Shown: positions 2,343-22,415 of the stretch, in pieces
How the letters are laid out: the number at the start of each line of letters is the position of its first letter
How positions within the stretch are numbered: position 1 is the stretch's first letter
Source of the DNA: Escherichia coli
GTDB lineage: Bacteria > Pseudomonadota > Gammaproteobacteria > Enterobacterales > Enterobacteriaceae
Assembly: GCF_044324875.1 (NCBI RefSeq)
Contig: NZ_CP172187.1
Length of the DNA stretch: 64,000 nucleotides
Reading direction: 5' to 3' (one strand)
Notes under the pieces: generated by a model
Told to the model about the DNA's origin: nothing
Database searches by the model: none
The model's input: only the letters and a program-made list of their open reading frames with translations
Translations under genes and position numbers: made by a program

Positions 2343-3284
2343 GTGAGGAGAATTCCCATGCCAAACTGGTGCTCAAATCGTATGTATTTTTCTGGTGAAC
2401 CAGCACAGATCGCTGAGATTAAACGACTGGCCAGCGGTGCAGTCACACCGCTTTATCGCCGCGCCACAGATGAAGGTATTCAGCTGTTTCTGGCCGGTAG
2501 TGCCGGACTTCTGCAGACCACTGAAGATGTGCGGTTTGAACCATGCCCCGGACTGACGGCTGCCGGACGTGGTGTTGTATCGCCGGAGAATATCGCGTTC
2601 ACCCGCTGGCTGACACACCTGCAGAACGGTGTGCTACTGGATGAAAAAAACTGCCTGATGCTGCATGAACTCTGGCTGCAGAGTGGTACTGGCCAGCGTC
2701 GCTGGGAAGGATTACCGGATGAGGTCAGGGAAAGCATCACCGTGCATTTCACCGCCAAAAGAGGTAACTGGTGTGGCTTCTGGAGTAACGAGGATGTATC
2801 GGTGTGGTGGAACCGTCTGTGTGACAATGTACTGCCGGAAAAAACCATGCCGTTTGACCTGCTGACGGTTCTGCCCACCCGCCTGGATGTTGAAGTGAAT
2901 GGCTTTAACGGTGGTGTTCTGAACGGTGTTCCTTCTGCGTATCACTGGTATACGGAACAGTATGGCGTGAAGTGGCCTGTGGGGTATGAGGTGAATATCA
3001 GCAGTCAGGGAGACAACTTCATTCAGGTTGATTTCGACACGCCGTGGTGTCAGCCGGAAAGCGACGTTATTGCAGAATTAAGCCGCCGTTTCAGTTGCAC
3101 ACTGGAGCACTGGTATGCCGAGCAGGGCTGCAATTTCTGTGGCTGGCAGCGATATGAGCGTGGAGAGCTTGTTGATGTCCTGTGGGGGGAATTGGAATGG
3201 TCTTCCCCGACAGATGACGATGAGCTGCCGGAAGTCACCGGACCTGCGTGGATTGTCGACAAGGTGGCGCATTACGGTGGATGA
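2343..3284 (+). CDS. Hypothetical leading-region protein (313 aa; Cys/Trp-rich), function unknown
   Basis: Long ORF immediately downstream of repeat A copy 1; alternative start ATG at 2358 (MPNWCS...). No motif I can assign. Confidence 0.55.
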   Translation: MRRIPMPNWCSNRMYFSGEPAQIAEIKRLASGAVTPLYRRATDEGIQLFLAGSAGLLQTTEDVRFEPCPGLTAAGRGVVSPENIAFTRWLTHLQNGVLLDEKNCLMLHELWLQSGTGQRRWEGLPDEVRESITVHFTAKRGNWCGFWSNEDVSVWWNRLCDNVLPEKTMPFDLLTVLPTRLDVEVNGFNGGVLNGVPSAYHWYTEQYGVKWPVGYEVNISSQGDNFIQVDFDTPWCQPESDVIAELSRRFSCTLEHWYAEQGCNFCGWQRYERGELVDVLWGELEWSSPTDDDELPEVTGPAWIVDKVAHYGG

Positions 3285-3289
3285 ATTCT

Positions 3290-3650
3290 GACGGAGACGG
3301 GCGGGCAACCGCCCGTTTCTTTTCCGACAAAGGATGTCGCCGTGCTCCTCTTTTTACTGCGCCGGCTGACGCGGCGCGGCATAAACGCTGCCTGTGGTCA
3401 GTGTCCCGCGTCCGGCGGGCACGGGACGGGCGCTTTTACCGCTCCCGGCTGGCACCGGTGACAGTGTACGCCAGCCCGTCGCCCTTTTCTGATGAACGCC
3501 CTTCAAGCCGCTTTCGCGGCATAGCCTTGCCGTCAAAAAGACGACGGCTGCGGTATTCCACGGTCGGCCTGACCCGTTACCGGACGCGGTGAACAGCCCA
3601 CAGGCAGCGGGGAACGGGCACCACAGGGGTGCCCTCCCGGTGCCTTCTGT
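3290..3650. repeat. Leading-region repeat family A, copy 2
   Basis: Direct repeat of 1985-2340 with a few substitutions; ends at the RBS (AAGGAGG) of the methyltransferase gene at 3668. Confidence 0.8.
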
Positions 3651-3667
3651 AAGAGAAGGAGGCTTTT

Positions 3668-4351
3668 ATGTCCCGTTTTATCCTGGGTGACTGCGTGCGA
3701 GTTATGGCCACGTTTCCGGACAATGCTGTCGATTTCATCCTCACCGACCCGCCGTATCTCGTCGGTTTCCGTGACCGTTCCGGGCGCACCATTGCCGGTG
3801 ACGTTAACGATGACTGGTTGCAACCTGCCAGCAATGAGATGTACCGCGTACTCAAAAAAGACGCTCTGTTGGTCAGCTTCTACGGCTGGAACCGTATTGA
3901 CCGCTTTATGGCGGCCTGGAAACGCGCCGGATTCAGCGTGGCAGGGCACCTCGTGTTCACCAAAAACTACACATCCAAATCTGCGTATGTCGCGTACCGC
4001 CACGAATGCGCCTACATCCTGGCAAAAGGCCGTCCACGTCTGCCACAAAACCCGCTGCCGGACGTGCTGGGCTGGAAATATTCGGGCAATCGTCATCACC
4101 CGACGGAAAAGCCTGTTACCAGCCTGCAACCGCTGATTGAGAGCTTCACACACCCGAACGCAATTGTGCTGGACCCGTTTGCAGGCAGCGGCTCAACCTG
4201 CGTTGCCGCCCTCCAGTCCGGACGCCGGTATATCGGTATCGAGCTGCTTGAGCAGTATCACCGTGCCGGACAGCAACGACTGGCTGCCGTTCAACGGGCC
4301 ATGCAGCAGGGGGCCGCGAATGATGACTGGTTTATGCCGGAGGCTGCGTAA
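3668..4351 (+). CDS. Orphan DNA methyltransferase, beta-class (N6-adenine/N4-cytosine type; DPPY motif precedes the SAM-binding FAGSGST motif)
   Basis: 227-aa ORF with TDPPYLVGF near the N-terminus and DPFAGSGSTCVAA near the C-terminus; no adjacent restriction endonuclease gene. Confidence 0.85.
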   Translation: MSRFILGDCVRVMATFPDNAVDFILTDPPYLVGFRDRSGRTIAGDVNDDWLQPASNEMYRVLKKDALLVSFYGWNRIDRFMAAWKRAGFSVAGHLVFTKNYTSKSAYVAYRHECAYILAKGRPRLPQNPLPDVLGWKYSGNRHHPTEKPVTSLQPLIESFTHPNAIVLDPFAGSGSTCVAALQSGRRYIGIELLEQYHRAGQQRLAAVQRAMQQGAANDDWFMPEAA

Positions 4352-4585: not shown

Positions 4586-5020
4586 ATGTACGGAACATGC
4601 GAAACACTCTGCCGGGAGCTGGCAGCGCAGTATCCGGGAGACACGCCGCTGATGCTGGTTGTCTGGTCCCCGGAAGAGATTCAGGCACTGGCTGACGGTA
4701 TGGAAATTTCTCTGACCGATCATGAAATCAGGACCGTCCTGTCGCGCCTGGAGGACATCCCGGAAGACCAGCGGAGTGAATCCGGTATTTCTTCTGCCGC
4801 TGCGATGGAGATTATCAGCAACGTGAGCGAAAACCGCCAGGTGACCGTCCCTGCTGAACTGCTGGCGTCCCTGATTCAGACCGCCGAACAGGCACTGTGG
4901 AAACGTGAATGGGCCGCCCGTGATAACGGCCTTGCCGTCCCGGAATGTGTTACCCGCCGTCAGGCAGTGATTAATCAGGCCCGCACCCTGCTGAAAAACA
5001 ACACACACGAAAACAACTGA
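4586..5020 (+). CDS. Hypothetical acidic protein (144 aa); paralog of ORF 6497..6919
   Basis: Shares the R(Q/H)VTVPA motif and a similar N-terminal pattern with ORF 6497..6919; RBS GGGGGAG upstream. Confidence 0.6.
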   Translation: MYGTCETLCRELAAQYPGDTPLMLVVWSPEEIQALADGMEISLTDHEIRTVLSRLEDIPEDQRSESGISSAAAMEIISNVSENRQVTVPAELLASLIQTAEQALWKREWAARDNGLAVPECVTRRQAVINQARTLLKNNTHENN

Positions 5021-5134
5021 TGTTATCGCCGCCTGCCCTCTGCCATTCAGAGACTGACCGGAACCGGGGCGGAACTGGTACTGTCCGGCAGTCAGTGGCA
5101 GTCGCTGCCGGTACTTCCGGCAGACGGAACGCAG

Positions 5135-5608
5135 GTGTCTTTCCCGTATGCCGGAGAATGGCTGACCGAAGACGAAATCAGGGCTGTTCTTGATGCGGTG
5201 CACGATGCGGTACGAAGCATCTGTTACCAGGTGGCAGAAGATACGCGGCGTATCCGTGCGGCGCTGACCACCACCGGTCAGACGTTGCTGACCCGCCAGA
5301 CGCGCCGCTTTCGCCTGGTCGTGAAGGAAAGCGATCATCCCTGCTGGCTCGATGAAGATGACGAAAACCTGCCCGTAGTGCTCGATGTCATCGTGAACCG
5401 GGGCGCACGTTTTTCGGCAGTGGAAATGTACCTGGTCAGCGATTGTATTGAGCATATCCTGTCCAGTGGGCTGGCCTGCGATGTGCTGCGTATACCGGAT
5501 GAACCGCCCCGCCGCTGGTTTGACCGTGGTGTTCTGCGGGAGGTGGTCCGGGAAGCCCGGACCGAAATCCGCAGCATGGCGGATGCCCTGGCAAAAATCC
5601 GTAAATGA
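5135..5608 (+). CDS. Hypothetical protein (157 aa)
   Basis: Co-oriented ORF; no recognisable motif. Confidence 0.5.
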
Positions 5609-5749
5609 TGACACTGGCGGGGTAAATCCCCGCCTTTTTCCTGCCGGTCCCCGGACAGAGCACAAAGGAAGTCGCCGCCGGCTCCGCTTTACCCGGCCAT
5701 GCGGGGCATGGCCTTGTGGATTTTCAGTTATGTGGCCTCAGCGTCGTGT

Positions 5750-5990
5750 GCGGGCTGTGCCGTGCCTCCATCGTAGCCGGGCTTCTGCGGGCGGGTTGCA
5801 AGGTAAGGTGAACCGCTGCGGTCACCCGGTCCCTCCTTCCCGTCTGCCGTGATTTTCCGGTCGTTCACCCGCTCAGATTTCGCGGTCTCACCCTCCAACT
5901 CCCGCCAGCCGTGTGCGTCAGGCTGCGGCTTCCCTTGCGCCCTTGCAACCCTGCAGGCCCGGCAAAGATGGAGGCACGGCACCGCCCGGT
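5750..5990. other. Long-range inverted repeat in a GC-rich 415-bp intergenic region upstream of klcA; candidate single-strand hairpin promoter/ssi element
   Basis: GCCGTGCCTCCATC (about 5763) pairs with GATGGAGGCACGGC (about 5968) about 190 nt apart, with further local palindromes; no ORF of note. Confidence 0.4.
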
Positions 5991-6024
5991 GTCGCGGAAT
6001 ATGTGAACAACGGAGGAAAACATC

Positions 6025-6450
6025 ATGCAATATGCGAAACCTGTCACTCTGAATGTTGAAGAGTGCGACCGTCTGTTTTTTCTGCCTTACCTGTTTGGCC
6101 AGGATTTTCTGTATGCCGAGGCATCTGTGTACGCGCTGGCGAAAAAAATGATGCCGGAATATGACGGCGGATTCTGGCACTTCATCCGCCTGCCGGACGG
6201 TGGCGGTTACATGATGCCGGATGGCGACCGTTTTCATCTGGTCAACGGTGAAAACTGGTTTGACCGTACGGTCAGCGCCGATGCCGCAGGCATCATTGTG
6301 ACTTCCCTTGTGATTAACCGTCAGTTGTGGCTGTACCACGACAGCGGTGATGCAGGACTGACTCACCTGTACAGGATGCGCGATGCGCAGTTGTGGAGCC
6401 ACATCGAATTTCACCCCGAATGCAATGCGATTTACGCGGCACTGGACTGA
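6025..6450 (+). CDS. klcA: KlcA/ArdB-family anti-restriction protein
   Basis: 141 aa with family hallmarks FLPYLFG...[16 protein letters not shown]...[11 protein letters not shown], matching my recollection of KlcA/YfjX-type proteins. Confidence 0.8.
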
Positions 6451-6496
6451 TTAACGGACGGGGCGGCAATGCCGCCCCTGTAAAGGAGACGAGAAC

Positions 6497-6919
6497 ATGT
6501 ACTGTACTGTTAAAGAAATTATCCGCGAAGTGCTGGATACAGACGTGCCGGACAGTGAATGCGTTTTTGCCGTGGTGCTGACCCGTGGGGATGTGCGCCA
6601 CATAGCTCAGGACTGGAGTCTGGCAGACGATGAGCTGGAAACCGTCATGCAGCGGCTGGACGATGCCTTTGAGCATGGTGCGGATGTCAGCGTTGTTCAC
6701 GACGTTGTTCGTGAACTGATGGAAGAAAAGCGCGCCAGCCGTCATGTGACAGTCCCGGCGATGATGCTGGAAAAAGTGATGGCGCTGGCAGGCAGTGAAA
6801 TGAAGCGCCTGTATGCCGTCGGAAGTGAGAACGGGGGCGACGGTGACGCATTCGTCAGGGAGGAACGCGAAGCAATGGACGTTGTGTTACAGGCGCTGGA
6901 CGGGGAGACGATGTCATGA
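6497..6919 (+). CDS. Hypothetical acidic protein (140 aa); paralog of ORF 4586..5020
   Basis: Shares the RHVTVPA motif and N-terminal pattern with ORF 4586..5020; RBS AAGGAG upstream. Confidence 0.6.
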   Translation: MYCTVKEIIREVLDTDVPDSECVFAVVLTRGDVRHIAQDWSLADDELETVMQRLDDAFEHGADVSVVHDVVRELMEEKRASRHVTVPAMMLEKVMALAGSEMKRLYAVGSENGGDGDAFVREEREAMDVVLQALDGETMS

Positions 6920-7107
6920 ATATCAGCACAGAAACCCGCGAAATTCTGCGTAATTACAGGGCCGTGATTAATGCGCGGCGTCGTGAAATGGGGCAGAAAC
7001 CGCTCACCACCGCGCAGATTGTTGATGAAATCTGCGATTTTGTGGCGAATCAGCAGGCGGTTTTCCTGGGCGGTCACTACATCTTACAGGGCAGCAGAAA
7101 CAGGTGA
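6916..7107 (+). CDS. Hypothetical small protein (63 aa)
   Basis: ATG overlaps the preceding stop (ATGA), suggesting translational coupling. Confidence 0.4.
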   Translation: MNISTETREILRNYRAVINARRREMGQKPLTTAQIVDEICDFVANQQAVFLGGHYILQGSRNR

Positions 7108-7295
7108 TACAGGGGCAGGCGGTGGAGGCCGCCTGTCAGCCCGCGCGAAAACCCCTGGCAGGCTGACGCCTGCCGGAAGGGAAGCGGGCCACGCTGGCGC
7201 GTCGCCCGTTACCCTTCCCGTCTGTGATGTGTCTGACTCAGGAGTGTTTCTTTCTTATGTTGCGGAACTGTTCCTGATGTTGTTGTTGTTCCTTT

Positions 7296-7895
7296 ATCTG
7301 CTGCTCTGATTCTGACTACTGCAGTGTTGTTCTGTCTGCCGGGCGCACCTTCGGCTCCCGGCTGCCTGGCGGCATCCGGTCGTCAGGCCCGACTCCGACA
7401 GGCAGCTGCTGGCGCACCTGCCAGTCTCCGCCGAACCCGCTGGCGCGGCTTCGGGCTGCCGCTACGGTCCGATGCGTGAAAACCCCGGGCTTGCAGCGAC
7501 CGTTCTGGTCGCGCCGCCTCTGTCGCGCCGTGGCCTGCGCTCCAGGCATCCCGGCAAAAAGACGCCGGGATGTAAGGCGCAACGCCGTTTCGCAAACCGC
7601 GCTTCACGTCGTTGCTGCGGGTCCCTGCTCATTGCCTGCCGGGTGCCACACACCCGTATGAGTCCCTGTCGCCGGGGGCATAGACAGCCACAACCTGCCG
7701 CACTGACTGTCCAGGGTAAATGAACAGCCCACAAAATTTTTTACCCAAAACCCGGTAAAAAATTTTGCGTTCTGCCCAGGACAGGTGCGTCAGGCCGTGG
7801 CAGTGATGCCCCTTGCGGCGAAGGTTCTCAAACGGGTGAAGTTCATACCACAGGGAATACAGCAGCAGGTTCCCGCGAAACGTCAAAACCGCGGC
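7296..7895. repeat. Leading-region repeat family B, copy 1 (~600 bp, GC-rich); candidate Frpo/ssi-like single-strand promoter
   Basis: Shares ...CTGATTCTGACTACTGCAGTGTTGTTCTGTCTGCCGGGCGCACCTTCGGCTCCCGGCTGCC... through ...CGCGGCTCCCGAAACTCAAC with copies at 10651-11280 and 18720-19340. Confidence 0.8.
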
Positions 7896-8148
7896 TCCCG
7901 AAACTCAACGGGTGATGTTCTTTAAAAATCAGGATTTATTTCAGGCTCCGGCAATACGCATTTATGTGTTCTGTCAGTCATCCGGCTGGCAGGTAATGAG
8001 AACGCAGGAACAGAAGGAGGAAAACACCGGAGAACGTCAGACGCAGATATGAAAAAAGCAGGCCGGGGAGGACCTGCTTAATCCACACCGCAAAAACTGT
8101 TCGAGCAGTTTCTGCGGTTCCATTCAACAGTCATAAGGAGTTTCATTT

Positions 8149-8379
8149 ATGACGGTAAGTATTGTTTCACCTTCCGCAGCGGCTGTAAAGCCCCGCCGTC
8201 ATCCCCGTTTCAGACGCGAAGACATCCCCGCGCCGGAAATTGACCCCGTGCTGAAAGCCTTCGGGCGACACATAGCCCGGAGTTTTCACCGGGGGCGTGG
8301 TGTACACATCCCCGCCATGAAAAACACGGCCTTCGGGCAGGTGCTCCGCACACTCGAACTGAAACGCGCTTTTAACTGA
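8149..8379 (+). CDS. Hypothetical small basic protein (76 aa)
   Basis: ORF downstream of repeat B copy 1 with RBS AGGAG. Confidence 0.4.
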   Translation: MTVSIVSPSAAAVKPRRHPRFRREDIPAPEIDPVLKAFGRHIARSFHRGRGVHIPAMKNTAFGQVLRTLELKRAFN

Positions 8380-8430
8380 TGAGGTGAGCCGCCCCGCGAG
8401 GGGCGGCAACAGATGGAAGGAGAACATTTT

Positions 8431-9792
8431 ATGACATTAGCAGCAATCACCATGACCGCCCCGGAAGCCGCCAACCCTGTGCAGATGTACCGCGCGACCT
8501 ACTCACCGGATGACAACAAACTGCGCCTGTATGCCGCGTCACGTCTTGACCCGGAGACGTATAAAAAAGTGCATGATGCCGGTTTTCGCTGGGCACCCAA
8601 ACAGGCGCTGTTTGTCGCGCCAGCCTGGACACCGGGCCGGGAAGACGTGCTCCTCTCACTTGCCGGAGAGATTGAGGATGAAGACAGCACGCTCGCTGAA
8701 CGTCAGGAAGCACGGGCGGAGCGGTTTACCGGATACAGCGGAAAGCGGGCCAGTGAATCCGCACAGGCACTTGATGAAGTGGAAAGACTGGCCGCGATGA
8801 TCCCGCCCGGTCAGCCCATTCTTGTGGGGCATCACAGCGAACGCCGCGCCCGTCGTGATGCGCAGCGTATTGAAAACGGCATGAAACGTGCCGTGATGCT
8901 CTTTGAGCGTGCGGAATACTGGGAGGAGCGGGCGCGGTCGGCACTGCTTCACGCGAAGTATAAAGAACGCCCGGACGTTCGCTGGCGTCGTATCAAAAAA
9001 ATCGAAGCGGATTTGCGCAAGGCTGAAAAGACCATCGCGCAGTCGCAGAAATATCTGACGATGTGGCGGGCTGAATCGCTGGATCTGAATATGGCAAAAC
9101 TCATCAGCAGTCATGACCATATCAGCGCCTGTTTCCCGCTGGACAGGTATCCGCGCCCGGCAGAAAAAAGCCAGTATGAAGGAAGTCGATCGTTATGGTC
9201 GGCCCTGGATGATGACATCATCACCACGGAGCAGGCCCGCGAAATTGCGATCCGCTGTCATGAACGGCAGATTCAGCATCAACAACGCTGGGTTAACCAC
9301 TATCATAACCGCCTGATCTATGAGCGTGCCATGCTGGACGAAAGCGGCGGCGTGGTTACCCGGACACAGGATTTTGAGCCGGGCGGACAGGTTTTCAGCC
9401 GGGGCGAGTGGCTGACCATCATCCGCGTGAACAAAAGCAACGGGGCGGTGAGTTCAGTCACAACGCCGAATTACAGTTTTCTCGGGTACAGCGGCACGAT
9501 GAAAGTGACACCCGATCGCATCACGGACTACAAAGCACCATCGGCAGAAGAGGCTGCCGTCGCCAGTCAGGCCGCGAAGCGTCCGCCGGTAGTCAACTAT
9601 CCGGGGGAAGGTTTCCGGGAAATGACAAAGGCGCAGTGGGCCGCCCTGCCCCGGGACTGTAAGGCCGTGCGCAGTGTGGCAGAGACAGAAGACCACGGGG
9701 CATACCGCTACCGCCGCACAATGGACAATAATTTCCGCCTGGTGAATGTGTATATCACTGACATGAAAATCACGGAAATCCCACAGAAATAA
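8431..9792 (+). CDS. Conserved hypothetical leading-region protein (~453 aa)
   Basis: ORF-track frame 8413..9792; ATG at 8431 follows AAGGAGAA. Charged and coiled-coil-like; no catalytic motif recognised. Confidence 0.55.
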   Translation: MTLAAITMTAPEAANPVQMYRATYSPDDNKLRLYAASRLDPETYKKVHDAGFRWAPKQALFVAPAWTPGREDVLLSLAGEIEDEDSTLAERQEARAERFTGYSGKRASESAQALDEVERLAAMIPPGQPILVGHHSERRARRDAQRIENGMKRAVMLFERAEYWEERARSALLHAKYKERPDVRWRRIKKIEADLRKAEKTIAQSQKYLTMWRAESLDLNMAKLISSHDHISACFPLDRYPRPAEKSQYEGSRSLWSALDDDIITTEQAREIAIRCHERQIQHQQRWVNHYHNRLIYERAMLDESGGVVTRTQDFEPGGQVFSRGEWLTIIRVNKSNGAVSSVTTPNYSFLGYSGTMKVTPDRITDYKAPSAEEAAVASQAAKRPPVVNYPGEGFREMTKAQWAALPRDCKAVRSVAETEDHGAYRYRRTMDNNFRLVNVYITDMKITEIPQK

Positions 9793-10402: not shown

Positions 10403-10581
10403 TGACACAGGGCTGGCGGGAGGATAAATGCCCGTCTGTCCGCGCCGGGAAAAGACCGCGCGCCGGTGGCGCTGAAAGGGGCCGCGCTCACGCGCCGCCC
10501 CTTTCATTACGCGGACGTTCTGATGGGGGCTTCTGTCTTTTCAGACCTGTCATTTGTCTGTTACTGATGATGTTGTTGTTC

Positions 10582-10647
10582 CTGCTACTGCTACTGCTAC
10601 TGCTACTGCTACTGCTACTGCTACTGCTACTGCTACTGCTACTGCTC
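10582..10647. repeat. Hexanucleotide tandem repeat (CTGCTA)x11
   Basis: Eleven perfect units counted directly at the 5' edge of repeat B copy 2; the equivalent position in copies 1 and 3 is not expanded. Confidence 0.9.
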
Positions 10648-10650
10648 TTC

Positions 10651-11280
10651 TTTTTCCTGCTGCTCTGATTCTGACTACTGCAGTGTTGTTCTGTCTGCCG
10701 GGCGCACCTTCGGCTCCCGGCTGCCTGGCGGCATCCGGTCGTCAGGCCCGACTCCGACAGGCAGCTGCTGGCGCACCTGCCAGTCTCCGCCGAACCCGCT
10801 GGCGCGGTTTCGGGCTGCCGCTACGGTCCGATGCGTGAAAACCCGGCTTGCAGCGACCGTTCCGGTCGCGCCGCCCCTGTCGCGCCGTGACCTGCGCTCC
10901 AGGCATCCCGGCAAAAAGACGCCGGGATGTAAGGCGCAACGCCGTTTCGCAAACCGCGCTTCACGTCGTTGCGGCGGGTCCCTGCCCGTTGTTGTGTCCG
11001 GTGCCATTCACCTGTTTAAGCCCCTGTCGCCGGGGGCTGATACAGCCACAACCTGCCGCACTGACTGTCCAGGGTAAATGAACAGCCCACAAAATTTTTT
11101 ACCCAAAACCCGGTAAAAAATTTTGCGTTCTGCCCAGGACAGGTGCGTCAGGCCGTGGCAGTGATGCCCCATGCGGCGAAGGTTCTCAAACAGGTGATGG
11201 TGAATACCGGAGGGAACAAAGAGCAGGTCCCCGCAAAACGTCAAAACCGCGGCTCCCGAAACTCAACAGATGATGGGGGC
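10651..11280. repeat. Leading-region repeat family B, copy 2, directly upstream of ssb
   Basis: Direct sequence identity with copies 1 and 3; the 3' end ...CGAAACTCAACAGATGATGGGGGCTGAAAAC is shared exactly with copy 3. Confidence 0.8.
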
Positions 11281-11308
11281 TGAAAACATCAACAGAAGGA
11301 GACACATC

Positions 11309-13862: not shown

Positions 13863-13888
13863 GTTTATCCCCAATAAGCTAGCAATGG

Positions 13889-13926
13889 AGAGCCGTATGC
13901 ACTGAAAGGTGCACGTACGGTTCGGA
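13889..13926 (+). ncRNA. Group II intron domain V (catalytic hairpin)
   Basis: Matches the conserved domain V consensus as I recall it (GAGCCGUAUGC...GCACGUACGGUUC), about 80 nt from the 3' splice site. Confidence 0.7.
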
Positions 13927-14008
13927 GGGGGGGTAACGGTGATCTAACTCAAGATAAGCAGGACATATTCGCCATTTATCTTGAAAGACCACACGTACCC
14001 TACCCTAC

Positions 14009-14849: not shown

Positions 14850-16807
14850 ATGTCAGTTACAGAGTCTAAGACAAAAACGGAGCGTAAATCCAGCCGTAAA
14901 CCTGCAAAAACGCAGGAAACTGCACTGTCTGCCCTGCTGGCGCAGACGGAGGAAGTGAGCGTGCCGCTGGATTCACTGATTAAATCACCGCTGAATGTGC
15001 GCACGGTGCCGTATTCTGCGGAGTCCGTCAGTGAACTGGCTGATTCCATTAAGGGAGTCGGCCTGCTGCAGAATCTGGTTGTTCATGCCCTGCCAGGTGA
15101 CCGTTACGGTGTCGCCGCAGGTGGTCGCCGACTGGCAGCACTCAACATGCTGGCAGAGCGTGACATCATTCAGGCTGACTGGCCTGTCCGCGTGAAAATT
15201 ATTCCGCAGGAGCTGGCGACGGCTGCATCGATGACCGAGAACGGTCATCGTCGGGATATGCACCCTGCCGAACAGATTGCCGGATTCCGCGCAATGGCGC
15301 AGGAAGGCAAAACACCTGCGCAAATCGGTGATTTGCTGGGCTATTCACCCCGCCATGTCCAGCGAATGCTGAAACTGGCTGACCTTGCGCCTGTCATCCT
15401 CGATGCGCTGGCAGAAGACCGCATCACCACCGAACACTGTCAGGCGCTGGCGCTGGAGAACGACACCGCGCGTCAGGTGCAGGTGTTTGAAGCCGCTGCC
15501 AGTCAGGATGGGGTGGAAAACCGGATGTGCGGGTTATCCGCAACCTGATTACGGAAAGTGAAGTGGCGGTGAAGGACAACACTAAATTTCGCTTTGTGGG
15601 GGCTGATGCTTTCTCGCCTGACGAACTGCGCACCGATTTGTTCAGCGATGACGGGGACGGTTATGTCGACCGCGTGGCGCTCGATGCCGCCCTGCTGGAA
15701 AAACTCCAGGTTGTTGCAGAGTCCCTTCGGGAAGCAGAAGGCTGGGAATGGTGCGCCGGGCGCATGGAGCCAGTCGGTGAGTGCCGTGAGGATGCCGGAA
15801 CATACCGCTGTCTGCCGGAGCCGGAAGCGGTGCTGACGGAGGCGGAAGAAGAACGCCTGAACGAACTGATGACGCGTTACGACGCGCTGGAAAACCAGTG
15901 TGAGGAATCCGACCTGCTGGAAGCAGAAATGAAGCTGATGCGCTGCATGGCGAAGGTCAGAGCGTGGACGCCGGAGATACGTGCCGGAAGCGGTGTGGTG
16001 GTGTCCTGGCGTTATGGCAACGTATGTGTCCAGCGTGGTGTGCAGTTGCGCAGTGAAGATGACGCGACTGACGACGCTGACCGCACGGAACAGGTGCAGG
16101 AGAAAGCGTCAGTGGAGGAAATCAGTCTGCCACTGCTGACGAAAATGTCTTCCGAACGCACGCTGGCAGTCCAGGCGGCACTGATGCAGCAACCGGACAA
16201 ATCCCTGACACTGCTGGCATGGACGCTCTGCCTGAATGTGTTTGGCAGCGGAGCGTACAGTAAACCAGCACAAATCAGCCTGGAATGTAAACATTATTCG
16301 CTGACCAGCGATGCGCCGTCAGGGAAGGAAGGTGCCGCATTCATGGCGCTGATGGCAGAAAAAGCCCGTCTTGCGGCCCTGTTACCGGAGGGATGGTCAC
16401 GGGACATGACGACATTCCTTTCACTCAGTCAGGAGGTGCTGTTATCCCTGCTCAGTTTCTGCACCGCGTGCAGCATCCACGGCGTTCAGACCCGCGAGTG
16501 TGGTCACACGTCACGCAGCCCGCTGGACACGCTGGAGAGCGCCATCGGTTTTCACATGCGCGACTGGTGGCAGCCGACAAAAGCAAACTTCTTCGGACAC
16601 CTGAAAAAGCCGCAGATTATCGCAGCCCTGAATGAGGCAGGACTGTCCGGTGCCGCACGGGACGCGGAGAAGATGAAGAAAGGCGATGCGGCTGAACATG
16701 CAGAGTTCCATATGAAAGACAACCGCTGGGTGCCTGGCTGGATGTGTGCACCACGTCCACAGACGGATACCACTGAACGCACTGATAACCTGGCTGATGC
16801 CGCCTGA
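14850..16807 (+). CDS. ParB-like nuclease-domain protein, apparently split by a frameshift into 14850..15548 and 15527..16807
   Basis: N-terminal part has ParB/Srx-like motifs (LQNLVVHALPGDRYGVAAGGRRLAALN, HTH-like region); the second ORF continues in another frame with a 22-nt overlap. Combined length (~650 aa) is that of intact homologues as I recall them. Confidence 0.6.
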
Positions 16808-18450: not shown

Positions 18451-18719
18451 CAACCTGGAGGCGGGCGCAGGCCCGCCTTTTCAGGACTGATGCTGGTCTG
18501 ACTACTGAAGCGCCTTTATAAAGGGGCTGCTGGTTCGCCGGTAGCCCCTTTCTCCTTGCTGATGTTGTACGGGCATGAACAACCTGACTTCAGGAAGGTC
18601 GTTTCCCTTCAGGAACGGGGATGAACGCGCGCCTGCGGCGCCCGTTCTTTTCCCCCGCCTTCTCTGGTTATGGCCTGTCAGAAATCACATCACCTTCCCT
18701 GTGATTATTCTCTTTTTCT

Positions 18720-19340
18720 TCCTGCTCTGATTCTGACTACTGCAGTGTTGTCCTGTCTGCCGGCGCACCTTCGGCTCCCGGCTGCCTGGCGGCATCCGGT
18801 CGTCAGGCCCGACTCCGACAGGCAGCTGCTGGCGCACCTGCCAGTCTCCGCCGAACCCGCTGGCGCGGTTTCGGGCTGTCGCTACGGTCCGATGCGTGAA
18901 AACCCCGGGCTTGCAGCGACCGTTCCGGTCGCGCCGCCTCTGTCGCGCCGTGGCCTGCGCTCCTGGCATCCCGGCAAAAAGACGCCGGGATGTAAGGCGC
19001 AACGCCGTTTCGCAAACCGCGCTTCACGTCGTTGCTGCGGGTCCCTGCCCGTTGTTGTGTCCGGTGCCATTCACCTGTTTAAGCCCCTGTCGCCGGGGGC
19101 TGATACAGCCACAACCTGCCGCACTGACTGTCCAGGGTAAATGAACAGCCCACAAAATTTTTTACCCAAAACCCGGTAAAAAATTTTGCGTTCTGCCCAG
19201 GACAGGTGCGTCAGGCCGTGGCAGTGATGCCCCATGCGGCGAAGGTTCTCAAACAGGTGATGGTGAATACCGGAGGGAACAAAGAGCAGGTCCCCGCAAA
19301 ACGTCAAAACCGCGGCTCCCGAAACTCAACAGATGATGGG
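18720..19340. repeat. Leading-region repeat family B, copy 3
   Basis: Direct identity with copies 1 and 2; ends about 30 nt upstream of the ATG at 19371. Confidence 0.8.
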
Positions 19341-19370
19341 GGCTGAAAACCAGAGAGAGGAGAAAGCTGG

Positions 19371-19776: not shown

Positions 19777-20598
19777 ATGCGATTAGCTTCCCGTTTTGGT
19801 CGGTATAATTCCATCCGTCGTGAACGTCCTTTAACGGATGATGAATTAATGCAGTTCGTGCCTTCGGTATTTTCCGGTGATAAACATGAGTCCCGGAGTG
19901 AACGTTATACGTATATTCCAACAATCAATATCATCAATAAGTTACGTGATGAAGGTTTCCAGCCATTCTTTGCCTGTCAGAGTCGGGTTCGTGATTTGGG
20001 ACGCCGCGAATACAGTAAACATATGTTACGTCTTCGCAGGGAAGGGCATATTAACGGGCAGGAAGTTCCTGAAATTATCCTGCTTAATTCACATGATGGT
20101 TCATCCAGTTATCAGATGATCCCCGGAATTTTTCGTTTTGTCTGCACAAATGGCCTGGTGTGCGGAAATAATTTTGGCGAAATCCGTGTTCCACATAAAG
20201 GTGATATTGTCGGGCAGGTTATCGAGGGAGCGTATGAAGTGCTCGGTGTCTTTGATAAGGTCACTGATAATATGGAGGCGATGAAAGAAATTCATCTTAA
20301 CAGTGACGAGCAACATTTATTTGGCAGAGCTGCACTGATGGTCAGGTATGAAGATGAAAATAAAACGCCAGTGACACCTGAACAGATAATTACTCCCCGT
20401 CGTCGGGAAGATAAACAGAACGATCTCTGGACAACCTGGCAGCGGGTTCAGGAGAATATGATAAAAGGTGGATTATCGGGGCGAAGTGCCTCCGGGAAAA
20501 ATACCAGGACAAGAGCCATTACAGGTATTGATGGTGATATAAGAATCAACAAGGCGTTATGGGTGATTGCCGAACAGTTCAGAAAGTGGAAGTCATGA
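19777..20598 (+). CDS. Conserved leading-region protein (273 aa), possibly DUF932/YubP-like
   Basis: ORF-track frame 19696..20598; ATG at 19777 preceded by AAGGAG. Family assignment is from memory and uncertain. Confidence 0.5.
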   Translation: MRLASRFGRYNSIRRERPLTDDELMQFVPSVFSGDKHESRSERYTYIPTINIINKLRDEGFQPFFACQSRVRDLGRREYSKHMLRLRREGHINGQEVPEIILLNSHDGSSSYQMIPGIFRFVCTNGLVCGNNFGEIRVPHKGDIVGQVIEGAYEVLGVFDKVTDNMEAMKEIHLNSDEQHLFGRAALMVRYEDENKTPVTPEQIITPRRREDKQNDLWTTWQRVQENMIKGGLSGRSASGKNTRTRAITGIDGDIRINKALWVIAEQFRKWKS

Positions 20599-20603
20599 TA
20601 ATA

Positions 20604-20641
20604 TAAGTAAAGCCCCGAAAAAATTTTCGGGGCTTTACTTA
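20604..20641. terminator. Bidirectional hairpin terminator between the leading-region genes and gene X
   Basis: Perfect inverted repeat TAAGTAAAGCCCCGAAAA / TTTTCGGGGCTTTACTTA flanked by A/T runs. Confidence 0.6.
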
Positions 20642-20894
20642 TATTATCATTTTTCGGCATTGCTGTGTCGTCTGATATACCTCAATTTCATCGACCGGCT
20701 TTCCGGTTGTCTGTAAATATTGTGCCCGCGAAAAATGGTCTGGCAGGAGGCTGCGCAGTTACCGGGTATATATAAGATGGGTTCCCGCTTCGCGGGGCTT
20801 CGGCCAGTCAGTATTGTCACTCATATGATATTTTTGTGTGTGGCCTTCCATGCCGCTTTTGCGGCATAACCGGTATCTGACAATGTCTGTAAGA

Positions 20895-21469: not shown

Positions 21470-21830
21470 TGGTGGTTCTCACCACCAAAAGCACCACACA
21501 CTACGCAAAAACAAGTTTTTGCTGATTTGCCACTTGAATCATTAACTTATGTTTTAAATAATGTATTTTAATTTATTTTACATTATAAAAAGGATTCATT
21601 GGTGAATCGCATATGATTCACCAATGAATTTAACACAACTCATAGATGAATCAGTAATAATAAAACAACGAGTTAAAGCGAATTGACTCTAGATTCAATT
21701 CGTGATGTGATTTGCTGCATGAATCGTAATTTTCGTAACTTGCGTCACGATTCGATTCATCGATGAATTGTCATTTTTTTATATGTGAAATAAATTTGAT
21801 GCGATAAGAAAATAAAGAGGTATACATATG
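21470..21830. other. oriT region; predicted nic site on the minus strand at about 21495/21496
   Basis: Minus strand reads ...TTTTTGCGTAGTGTGT|GGTGCTTTTGGTGGTGAG, the F-like nic consensus as I recall it; AT-rich with multiple inverted repeats (e.g. 21590-21630, 21690-21770) in the expected TraM/IHF/TraY binding zone upstream of traM. Confidence 0.7.
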
Positions 21831-22211: not shown

Positions 22212-22334
22212 AAAAGAATTAAAAGTTGATTTGCTTCAAATAACAGGATTTTGATCTGGTTCAATTTGATGACAATTAACCGCATAAAGGTTATATTAAT
22301 TACGTGGTTAATGCCACGTTAAAAATTGAAACTG

Positions 22335-22415
22335 AAAATCGCCGATGCAGGGAGTTCAGACCTCCCTGCATCGACTGTCCATAGAATCCTTAACGGAGGT
22401 TCCTATGTGTGCGCT
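22335..22415 (-). ncRNA. finP: FinP antisense RNA (approximate)
   Basis: Two stem-loops in the traJ leader: hairpin 22341-22378 and a second hairpin at about 22381-22410 whose loop holds the traJ Shine-Dalgarno (AACGGAGG) and whose stem holds the start codon. Confidence 0.5.

Follow-up and report, generated by a model that had tools for sequence, protein, structure and literature searches.

A probable class 2 single-stranded-DNA promoter upstream of klcA in the leading region of an F-like Escherichia coli plasmid

The promoters that conjugative plasmids carry on single-stranded DNA have been sorted into three classes in a study that profiled early transconjugants for the IncI1 plasmid pESBL and for F (PMC12672017; Nucleic Acids Res 2025;53:gkaf1299). 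Six operons were induced in pESBL; hairpins of the transferred strand (T strand) were mined upstream of each of them, and start sites were mapped by 5' RACE. Frpo and ssi1-3 make up class 1; the hairpins that precede klcA and ardA form class 2, and the one that precedes M.EcoGIX forms class 3. Classes 2 and 3 are conserved in F (PMC12672017). The highest transcription rates came from class 1. Class 2 sites gave full operon induction, with 5' RACE starts that agree with the hairpin promoter predictions. The pESBL klcA ortholog showed strong transient zygotic induction that was prolonged in uvrD recipients, and transcripts of the F klcA operon were enriched in recipients (PMC12672017).

Class 1, which includes Frpo1 and Frpo2 of F and ssi1-3 of ColIb-P9, is described in earlier sources (Masai and Arai 1997; Bates 1999; Couturier 2023, PMC9849209), and Frpo, by the summaries of Masai and Arai 1997 in later papers, supplies primer RNA in addition to acting as a promoter. 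Class 2 is expected to work like class 1, in which a T-strand hairpin in the leading region (250-300 nt) rebuilds -35 and -10 boxes, drives zygotic induction and is inactive once double-stranded. It differs in having no detectable sequence similarity to class 1, whose downstream genes are ssb, psiB and the ygeA block.

Here we describe an element upstream of klcA in a 64,000-nt stretch of E. coli contig NZ_CP172187.1 (assembly GCF_044324875.1), referred to below as the window. The window represents an F-like (IncF) conjugative plasmid, in which Rfam models detected the traJ 5' UTR with FinP (22302-22411), two hok/sok loci and CopA. Its minus strand at 21488-21506 resembles the sequence that we take to be the F/R100 nick region, and we therefore assign the T strand to the window minus strand and the leading region to positions below ~21.5 kb. 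Because the leading genes lie on the plus strand, the incoming T strand is their template, klcA included. The element occupies an intergenic leading-region site directly upstream of klcA, a gene templated by the T strand, and sits between the methylase operon and the ssb block, as in pESBL and F. Close to the oriT side of this region, ATGATAATATAAGTAAAGCCCCGAAAA / TTTTCGGGGCTTTACTTATATTATCAT (20595-20650) form a perfect palindrome of 27 nt with a loop of 2 nt, probably a bidirectional terminator.

A structured noncoding stretch at 5609-6024 separates a 157-aa open reading frame (ORF) at 5135-5608 from the 141-aa klcA ORF at 6025-6450. An earlier note on this DNA, made from the letters alone, had pointed to an inverted repeat bracketing a structured region here, and the repeat is real. 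GCCGTGCCTCCATC (5759-5772) and its exact complement GATGGAGGCACGGC (5967-5980) form a perfect pair with a spacing of 194 nt, for which the chance expectation in 416 nt is ~3e-4 (estimated as position pairs x 4^-14). A repeat search lengthened the 14-nt pair to 32-nt arms with 91% complementarity (5751-5782 and 5957-5988) and found a perfect 11-nt pair nested inside them (5793-5803 and 5941-5951). Folding the minus strand as single-stranded DNA, the check that the note had proposed, gave a stable structure: 5609-6024 reached -110.2 kcal/mol, compared with -84.6 +/- 4.2 for dinucleotide shuffles (z = -6.0), and none of 100 shuffles folded as well.

The stretch is composed of several parts. Nearest the upstream operon, and beginning 8 nt past the stop codon of the 5135-5608 ORF, is that operon's intrinsic terminator (5616-5639, plus strand), in which GGCGGGGTAAATCCCCGCC (5616-5634), with a 7-bp all-GC stem, is followed by the T run TTTTT. 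The terminator is kept in klcA-type homologs and is separate from the hairpin, though it falls within the interval marked in the earlier note. It is strong, lies directly upstream and insulates klcA from read-through. No double-strand sigma-70 consensus with 9/12 matches was found in 5000-6600. The conserved unit itself spans ~5664 to 6006, and homology between klcA-type and ardA-type copies starts at its left boundary (5664-5692, plus strand; AAAGGAAGTCGCCGCCGGCTCCGCTTTAC). Between this boundary motif and the long hairpin lies a small perfect hairpin (5695-5713; GGCCATGC-GGG-GCATGGCC), which was flagged as terminator-like and is conserved in homologs.

The probable body of the promoter is a long rod-like hairpin of the T strand (5745-5990, minus strand; ~240 nt), recovered by folds, by an RNAalifold consensus and by pair counts. 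Its left arm (5751-5803, minus strand), read 5' to 3' from 5803 down to 5751, would serve as the non-template strand of a reconstituted promoter duplex. The right arm (5941-5988, minus strand) is continuous with the klcA template and would serve as the template strand; its outer 16-bp helix is almost invariant. The two arms are joined by a strongly conserved apical rod (5804-5940, minus strand), an imperfect helix ending in a terminal loop.

The first gene after the element (6025-6450, plus strand) belongs to the klcA/ardB family of anti-restriction genes (Pfam PF03230 Antirestrict, E = 1.3e-26), and an identical plasmid segment carries the annotation antirestriction protein for its product. 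Two co-oriented genes follow at 6497-7107 (plus strand), a DUF1380-like gene (6497-6919) and a 63-aa ORF (6916-7107). The order of the three genes is shared by pESBL and F, and they probably form one operon; the next single-stranded-DNA promoter downstream begins at ~7284. The element probably heads a small operon, and in IncI1 plasmids elements of its class drive ardA, so the suggestion that it is dedicated to the anti-restriction gene was too narrow.

We also considered what else the stretch might encode. A protein-coding reading was dropped because indels of 4-5 nt in each arm distinguish the two main alleles of the hairpin (described below) and would break the frame of an ORF that ran across the arms. 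With these frame-breaking indels and no conserved ORF, the region does lack a convincing ORF, as had been noted. An Rfam scan of 5400-6200 found no family at gathering score, and a reading of the element as a member of a known RNA family was dropped as well. The sole Rfam match with E < 1 at the element was to AS-pc01 (5612-5713, minus strand; 21 bits, E = 0.32, against a gathering score of 79); this weak match to the terminator/motif segment is probably due to chance. A genuine AS-pc01 antisense RNA is found at 8053-8154 (minus strand), directly after the first class 1 unit.

To place the element among the published classes, we compared it with pESBL (NC_018659.1; stretch L003) and F (NC_002483; stretch L004). 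In BLAST alignments it was 90.0% identical over 422 aligned columns to the region upstream of klcA in pESBL (L003 7059-7471) and 90.4% identical to that in F (L004 11346-11755), while its positions 5665-6017 were 87.5% identical over 360 columns to the region upstream of ardA in pESBL (L003 14058-14410). The element shares with the class 2 regions of pESBL and F this full-length homology, the site 5' of klcA, a T-strand rod hairpin and the leader sequence; it differs from them in the allele of a mid-stem spacer and in the bases opposite the -10 box. The element sequence was not found in the supplements of the Nature 2024 paper.

The published mining rule accepts 300-nt stretches whose T-strand free energy falls below -75 kcal/mol (PMC12672017). 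By this measure the klcA element also qualifies, as its best 300-nt T-strand stretch (start 5701) folds at -79.7 kcal/mol, compared with a leading-region background of -48.8 +/- 14.2. Six clear T-strand peaks stand out in the leading region, each upstream of a gene block: the klcA element, two copies of a repeat family termed B and three copies of a family termed A. At 13888-14008 and 15081-15500, also within the leading region, the catalytic domain of a group II intron (Rfam RF00029, 67 bits) has a marginal T-strand peak (-75 to -77 kcal/mol) nearby, which probably reflects intron structure rather than a promoter.

Families A and B proved to be the other two classes. Family A (7284-7932, 10643-11290 and 18704-19353) matches the Frpo sites of F at 84-94% identity and is class 1, while family B (1971-2342 and 3276-3667) matches the hairpin upstream of M.EcoGIX in pESBL (L003 4490-4875) at 97% and is class 3. 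The klcA element is a copy of neither, as had been noted, since word-size-7 blastn alignments to either family left the hairpin uncovered. The best blastn alignment to family A was 17 nt long (E = 0.15-0.24), which is chance level, and the one match with E < 0.01 was a 29-nt stretch at the left edge in common with family B (E = 0.003-0.004). From the fold alone, -35 and -10 boxes could not be placed with confidence in the class 1 hairpins.

The modular layout of class 3 is that of class 2: a terminator is followed by AAAGGAWGTCGCCG, then a hairpin, then a leader with a Shine-Dalgarno sequence. The class 3 hairpin, with 30-nt arms ~165-175 nt apart, is nonetheless unrelated in sequence beyond the boundary motif, and it drives a single-stranded-DNA methyltransferase operon. 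AAAGGAWGTCGCCG makes up the first 14 nt of 5664-5692 and recurs at the corresponding position of each family B copy. In the leading region it is found only at 2024-2037, 3329-3342 and 5664-5677, each time just after a terminator and ~60-85 nt upstream of a class 3 or class 2 left arm; the whole window holds 5 matches with up to 2 mismatches, compared with 0.76 expected.

The window holds three class 1 units, each ~650 nt including a conserved upstream part, whereas F has been described with two; the extra copy precedes a DUF3560/ParB-like block (8149-9792). A trinucleotide-type CTG/CTA array (CTGCTA repeated; 10558-10680) lies directly upstream of the second class 1 unit, and a shorter relative of it (7268-7315) precedes the first. 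Two class 3 units that are 97% identical to each other precede a DUF1281 gene (unit 1971-2342, gene 2343-3284) and the DNA methylase gene (unit 3276-3667, gene 3668-4351); in the stretches used for comparison, L003 (pESBL) and L004 (F), only one class 3 copy had a match.

Collectively, these comparisons indicate that the klcA-upstream element is very probably a class 2 single-stranded-DNA promoter. The earlier note had proposed a third class of single-strand promoter or ssi site serving klcA. Its single-strand-promoter interpretation is supported, and the class is indeed a separate one, but given the full-length homology to the class 2 regions of pESBL and F, its "third class" is the published class 2. 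The element adds no new principle and is a member of an already described family.

To ask how the structure behaves across this family, we scanned metagenomes with a leader pattern that lies outside the hairpin, which yielded 120 loci and, together with the reference plasmids, 83 unique hairpin sequences. The gene downstream was KlcA, ArdA or a divergent KlcA in the fetched copies, with the exception of L065, an unrelated chance match to the leader pattern, and L058, a copy without an intact ORF called. The T strand folded better than its complement in all 83 unique homologs (means of -75.8 and -68.2, an average gap of 7.6 kcal/mol); in the window copy alone the strand bias is small (-77.4 compared with -73.0 kcal/mol). 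The non-Watson-Crick cells of the stem on the T strand were G.T in 81 cases and A.C in 15.

These strand-specific features bear on whether the hairpin acts at the RNA level instead, as a long structured 5' UTR, an attenuator or a site of processing within an upstream-initiated mRNA that continues into klcA. Such a role would fit the plus strand, which folds well too (5609-6024: -104 kcal/mol, z = -5.2), as any inverted repeat must. However, the minus strand is the better folder throughout the homolog set, each G.T of the stem on that strand becomes an A.C in plus-sense RNA, and a strong terminator separates the upstream ORF from the hairpin. The missing Rfam match and the published 5' RACE starts, which agree with hairpin promoter predictions (PMC12672017), also count against an RNA function, and the invariance of a TAnGAT motif on one arm only (see below) has no rationale at the RNA level. 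We consider an RNA-level role very improbable.

Pairing of the stem is maintained in the homologs. Of the stem cells, 89.7% were paired, compared with 36-41% when partners were slid, and 8 pairs had changed on both sides, compared with 0-2 in the slid controls. In a shuffle test of stem pairing, 0 of 500 shuffles reached the observed values, a significance that is inflated by close kinship among the homologs (91% mean column identity); the slid controls and individual compensations are the sounder evidence. Two divergent copies, L036 and L104, together with allele swaps account for most two-sided changes. The clearest compensations, GTGCATCC/GGATGCAC, GTCGGGC/GCCCGAC and GGATACA/TGTATCC, are those of L036 and L104. 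RNAalifold independently recovered a single long rod, with apical compensatory changes at alignment columns 97/159 and 114/140. As MAFFT misaligned the two spacer alleles (columns ~201-222), we analyzed the alleles separately, and the pair counts for helix 2 are an underestimate.

We next compared nucleotide diversity across the element with that of the gene downstream. Diversity was 0.18 at four-fold degenerate sites of klcA and 0.057 at its codon positions 1 and 2. Within the element, it was 0.056 in the apical rod, 0.013-0.029 in the outer stem, 0.007-0.008 in the GCCGGGC helix, 0.28-0.38 in the spacer modules and 0.48 at the bases opposite the -10 box. The class 2 element is thus under stronger constraint than klcA synonymous sites.

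Within the conserved stem, we infer the positions of the -35 and -10 boxes as follows. The non-template arm reads CCTTGCAACCC-gccc-GCAG-aa-GCCCGGC-tAcGAT-GGAGGCACGGCAC. The candidate -35 box, TTGCAA (5796-5801, minus strand), matches TTGACA at 4/6 positions and is fully paired in the 11-bp helix 5793-5803/5941-5951. The candidate -10 box, TACGAT (5770-5775, minus strand), is flanked by or lies within mismatches to the opposite arm; in the window copy its first and third bases are mismatched, and in pESBL and F, which have TAAGAT, a 3 x 3 internal loop covers positions 2-4. Each box has only 4/6 matches to consensus, and the spacer between them is irregular and bulged. In the 83 homologs the -10 motif TAnGAT is invariant at 5/6 positions, while the template-arm bases that oppose it take 8 forms. 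Such invariance on one arm fits recognition of a non-template -10 by sigma-70 and is sensible only if the arms pair. The -35 box is TTGCAT in 59 homologs and TTGCAA in 22, and TTGCCT and TTGTAT occur once each; the partner arm shows compensating changes.

From these box positions, transcription is predicted to start at 5976 +/- 2 nt (plus strand), 7 nt downstream of the -10 box and within the outer helix. The predicted 49-nt leader (5976-6024, plus strand) contains the Shine-Dalgarno sequence GGAGG at 6012-6016, and its first ~30 nt are common to ardA-type copies; its fold as RNA is unremarkable (z = -0.6). The boxes and start site proposed here may differ from the published assignments.

The two main alleles differ in the spacer between the boxes. 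In the window-type allele (21/83 unique sequences), TTGCAA is followed on the non-template arm by 20 nt and TACGAT, and the template spacer is 15 nt. In the pESBL/F-type allele (56/83), TTGCAT is followed by 15 nt and TAAGAT, and the template spacer is 19 nt. The spacer of the bulged hairpin averages ~17 nt, while neither arm alone offers 16-18 nt. Rare recombinant alleles with 20/19 and 15/15 spacers exist in nature, so that spacer pairing is not strictly required. The window-type allele is common, occurring at 99% identity or more in 800 E. coli records. Because the experimentally studied plasmids pESBL and F carry the other allele, the expectation that the window allele acts as a promoter draws on homology and on the conserved signature. 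More speculatively, and less likely than not, the two spacer alleles may form a built-in single-strand/double-strand switch, in which the bulged hairpin would hold the invariant non-template -10 in a pre-opened bubble. The window allele would then be an independently rebuilt spacer solution, perhaps of different strength or host range. In the same speculative vein, AAAGGAWGTCGCCG might mark a module shared by classes 2 and 3. If AAAGGAWGTCGCCG were such a functional or recombinational module, it could let hairpin-promoter cassettes shuffle between anti-defense genes.

Taken together, these data support a model for which we infer the exact boxes, the start site and the mechanism of switching off. 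In conjugation the recipient would first receive the T strand, here the window minus strand and the klcA template, and positions 5745-5990 would snap back into the ~240-nt rod hairpin. The lower stem would then mimic a double-stranded sigma-70 promoter, with the right arm as template and the left arm as non-template strand; of the two boxes on the left arm, the -35 (TTGCAA) would be paired, whereas the -10 (TACGAT), lying among mismatches, would be partly pre-melted. Host RNA polymerase would start at ~5976, unwind the remaining stem and transcribe klcA and the two following genes, so that the anti-restriction protein could be made before the complementary strand is synthesized. In the double-stranded state the hairpin would be lost and expression would be off: a lone arm has a spacer of 15 or 20 nt, and the left-arm boxes face away from klcA, and for these reasons the duplex is predicted to be silent. 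The terminator at 5616-5639 would keep upstream transcription out.

The promoters of the phage N4 virion RNA polymerase are likewise defined by a DNA hairpin, which lies on the template strand and works with SSB as cofactor. The hairpins of N4 have tiny stems of 5-7 bp, arise by extrusion from supercoiled duplex DNA and are read by a phage single-subunit polymerase, whereas the reader of class 2 would be the host sigma-70 holoenzyme acting on incoming single-stranded DNA.

A different emphasis is possible, in which the hairpin is mainly a priming site (ssi) for complementary-strand synthesis that makes a short primer RNA, with klcA expression secondary. Transcription from the hairpin runs in the direction of complementary-strand synthesis, conservation of the apical rod (diversity 0.056) exceeds the needs of a simple promoter, and Frpo is described as both promoter and primer-RNA source in the later summaries of Masai and Arai 1997. 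However, nearly every copy retrieved immediately precedes an anti-restriction gene (KlcA, ArdA or a divergent KlcA), the leader is shared, and class 2 sites gave full operon induction (PMC12672017). We regard a mainly priming role as possible though unlikely, and it is compatible with a promoter role in any case.

The promoter element is widespread. Plasmid records with the element at 90% identity or above number at least 5000, and 3680 of 5426 complete E. coli genomes carry it, nearly always on a plasmid. Since the arms also match in reverse, counts of places per record are doubled, and 4 places in an IncI1 plasmid correspond to 2 copies. A scan of genome contigs with a 20-mer from the apical loop returned 9 loci, several of them plainly mislabeled or contaminated, and added little diversity. 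Five of these copies (L005, L006, L008, L010 and L011), 91-99% identical to the window copy, were on short contigs of assemblies labeled Streptomyces morookaense, Oscillospiraceae, Collinsella and Acinetobacter idrijaensis, and most likely represent enterobacterial plasmid contamination or mis-binning.

Natural variants disrupt the hairpin in two ways. A 2.4-kb IS110-family element (annotated ISEc32) is inserted in the class 2 hairpin at the non-template -35 in L054, L099 (3301-5727), L111 (335-2761) and the plasmid hits H91-H96. The insertion cuts the -35 and -10 boxes off from both the apex and the template arm, and the same junction is found in at least 345 plasmid records. In L089 (~9000-9260), a deletion joins the end of the upstream ORF and TGACGCTGGCGGGG directly to left-arm GGATGCAAGGG; it removes the outer left arm and the -10 box, leaving klcA there without a hairpin, and apparently arose through the repeated CTGGCGGGG.

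The recurrent ISEc32 insertion at one point of the hairpin, along with recombination between left and right spacer modules, could suggest that mobile DNA left the element behind or uses it as a target, as with a MITE-like inverted repeat, a cruciform site of recombination or an IS target, and that it has no promoter role in this plasmid. We consider this extremely unlikely. The element has a fixed position 5' of klcA or ardA in thousands of plasmids and no other copy within the window, its diversity is well below that of synonymous sites, and its stem is kept by compensatory changes; being an IS target is, moreover, compatible with being a promoter.

The window copy shows that the class 2 element is extremely widespread and comes with at least two spacer alleles, of which the pESBL/F type is the one with a mapped start site. 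Its spacer allele, the boundary motif that class 3 also has and the repeated insertion of an IS110-family element at the -35 are worth following. Single-strand promoters explain how anti-restriction, anti-SOS and methylase genes are expressed minutes after entry, before the plasmid becomes double-stranded, and targeting them might be a way to block resistance plasmids from spreading.
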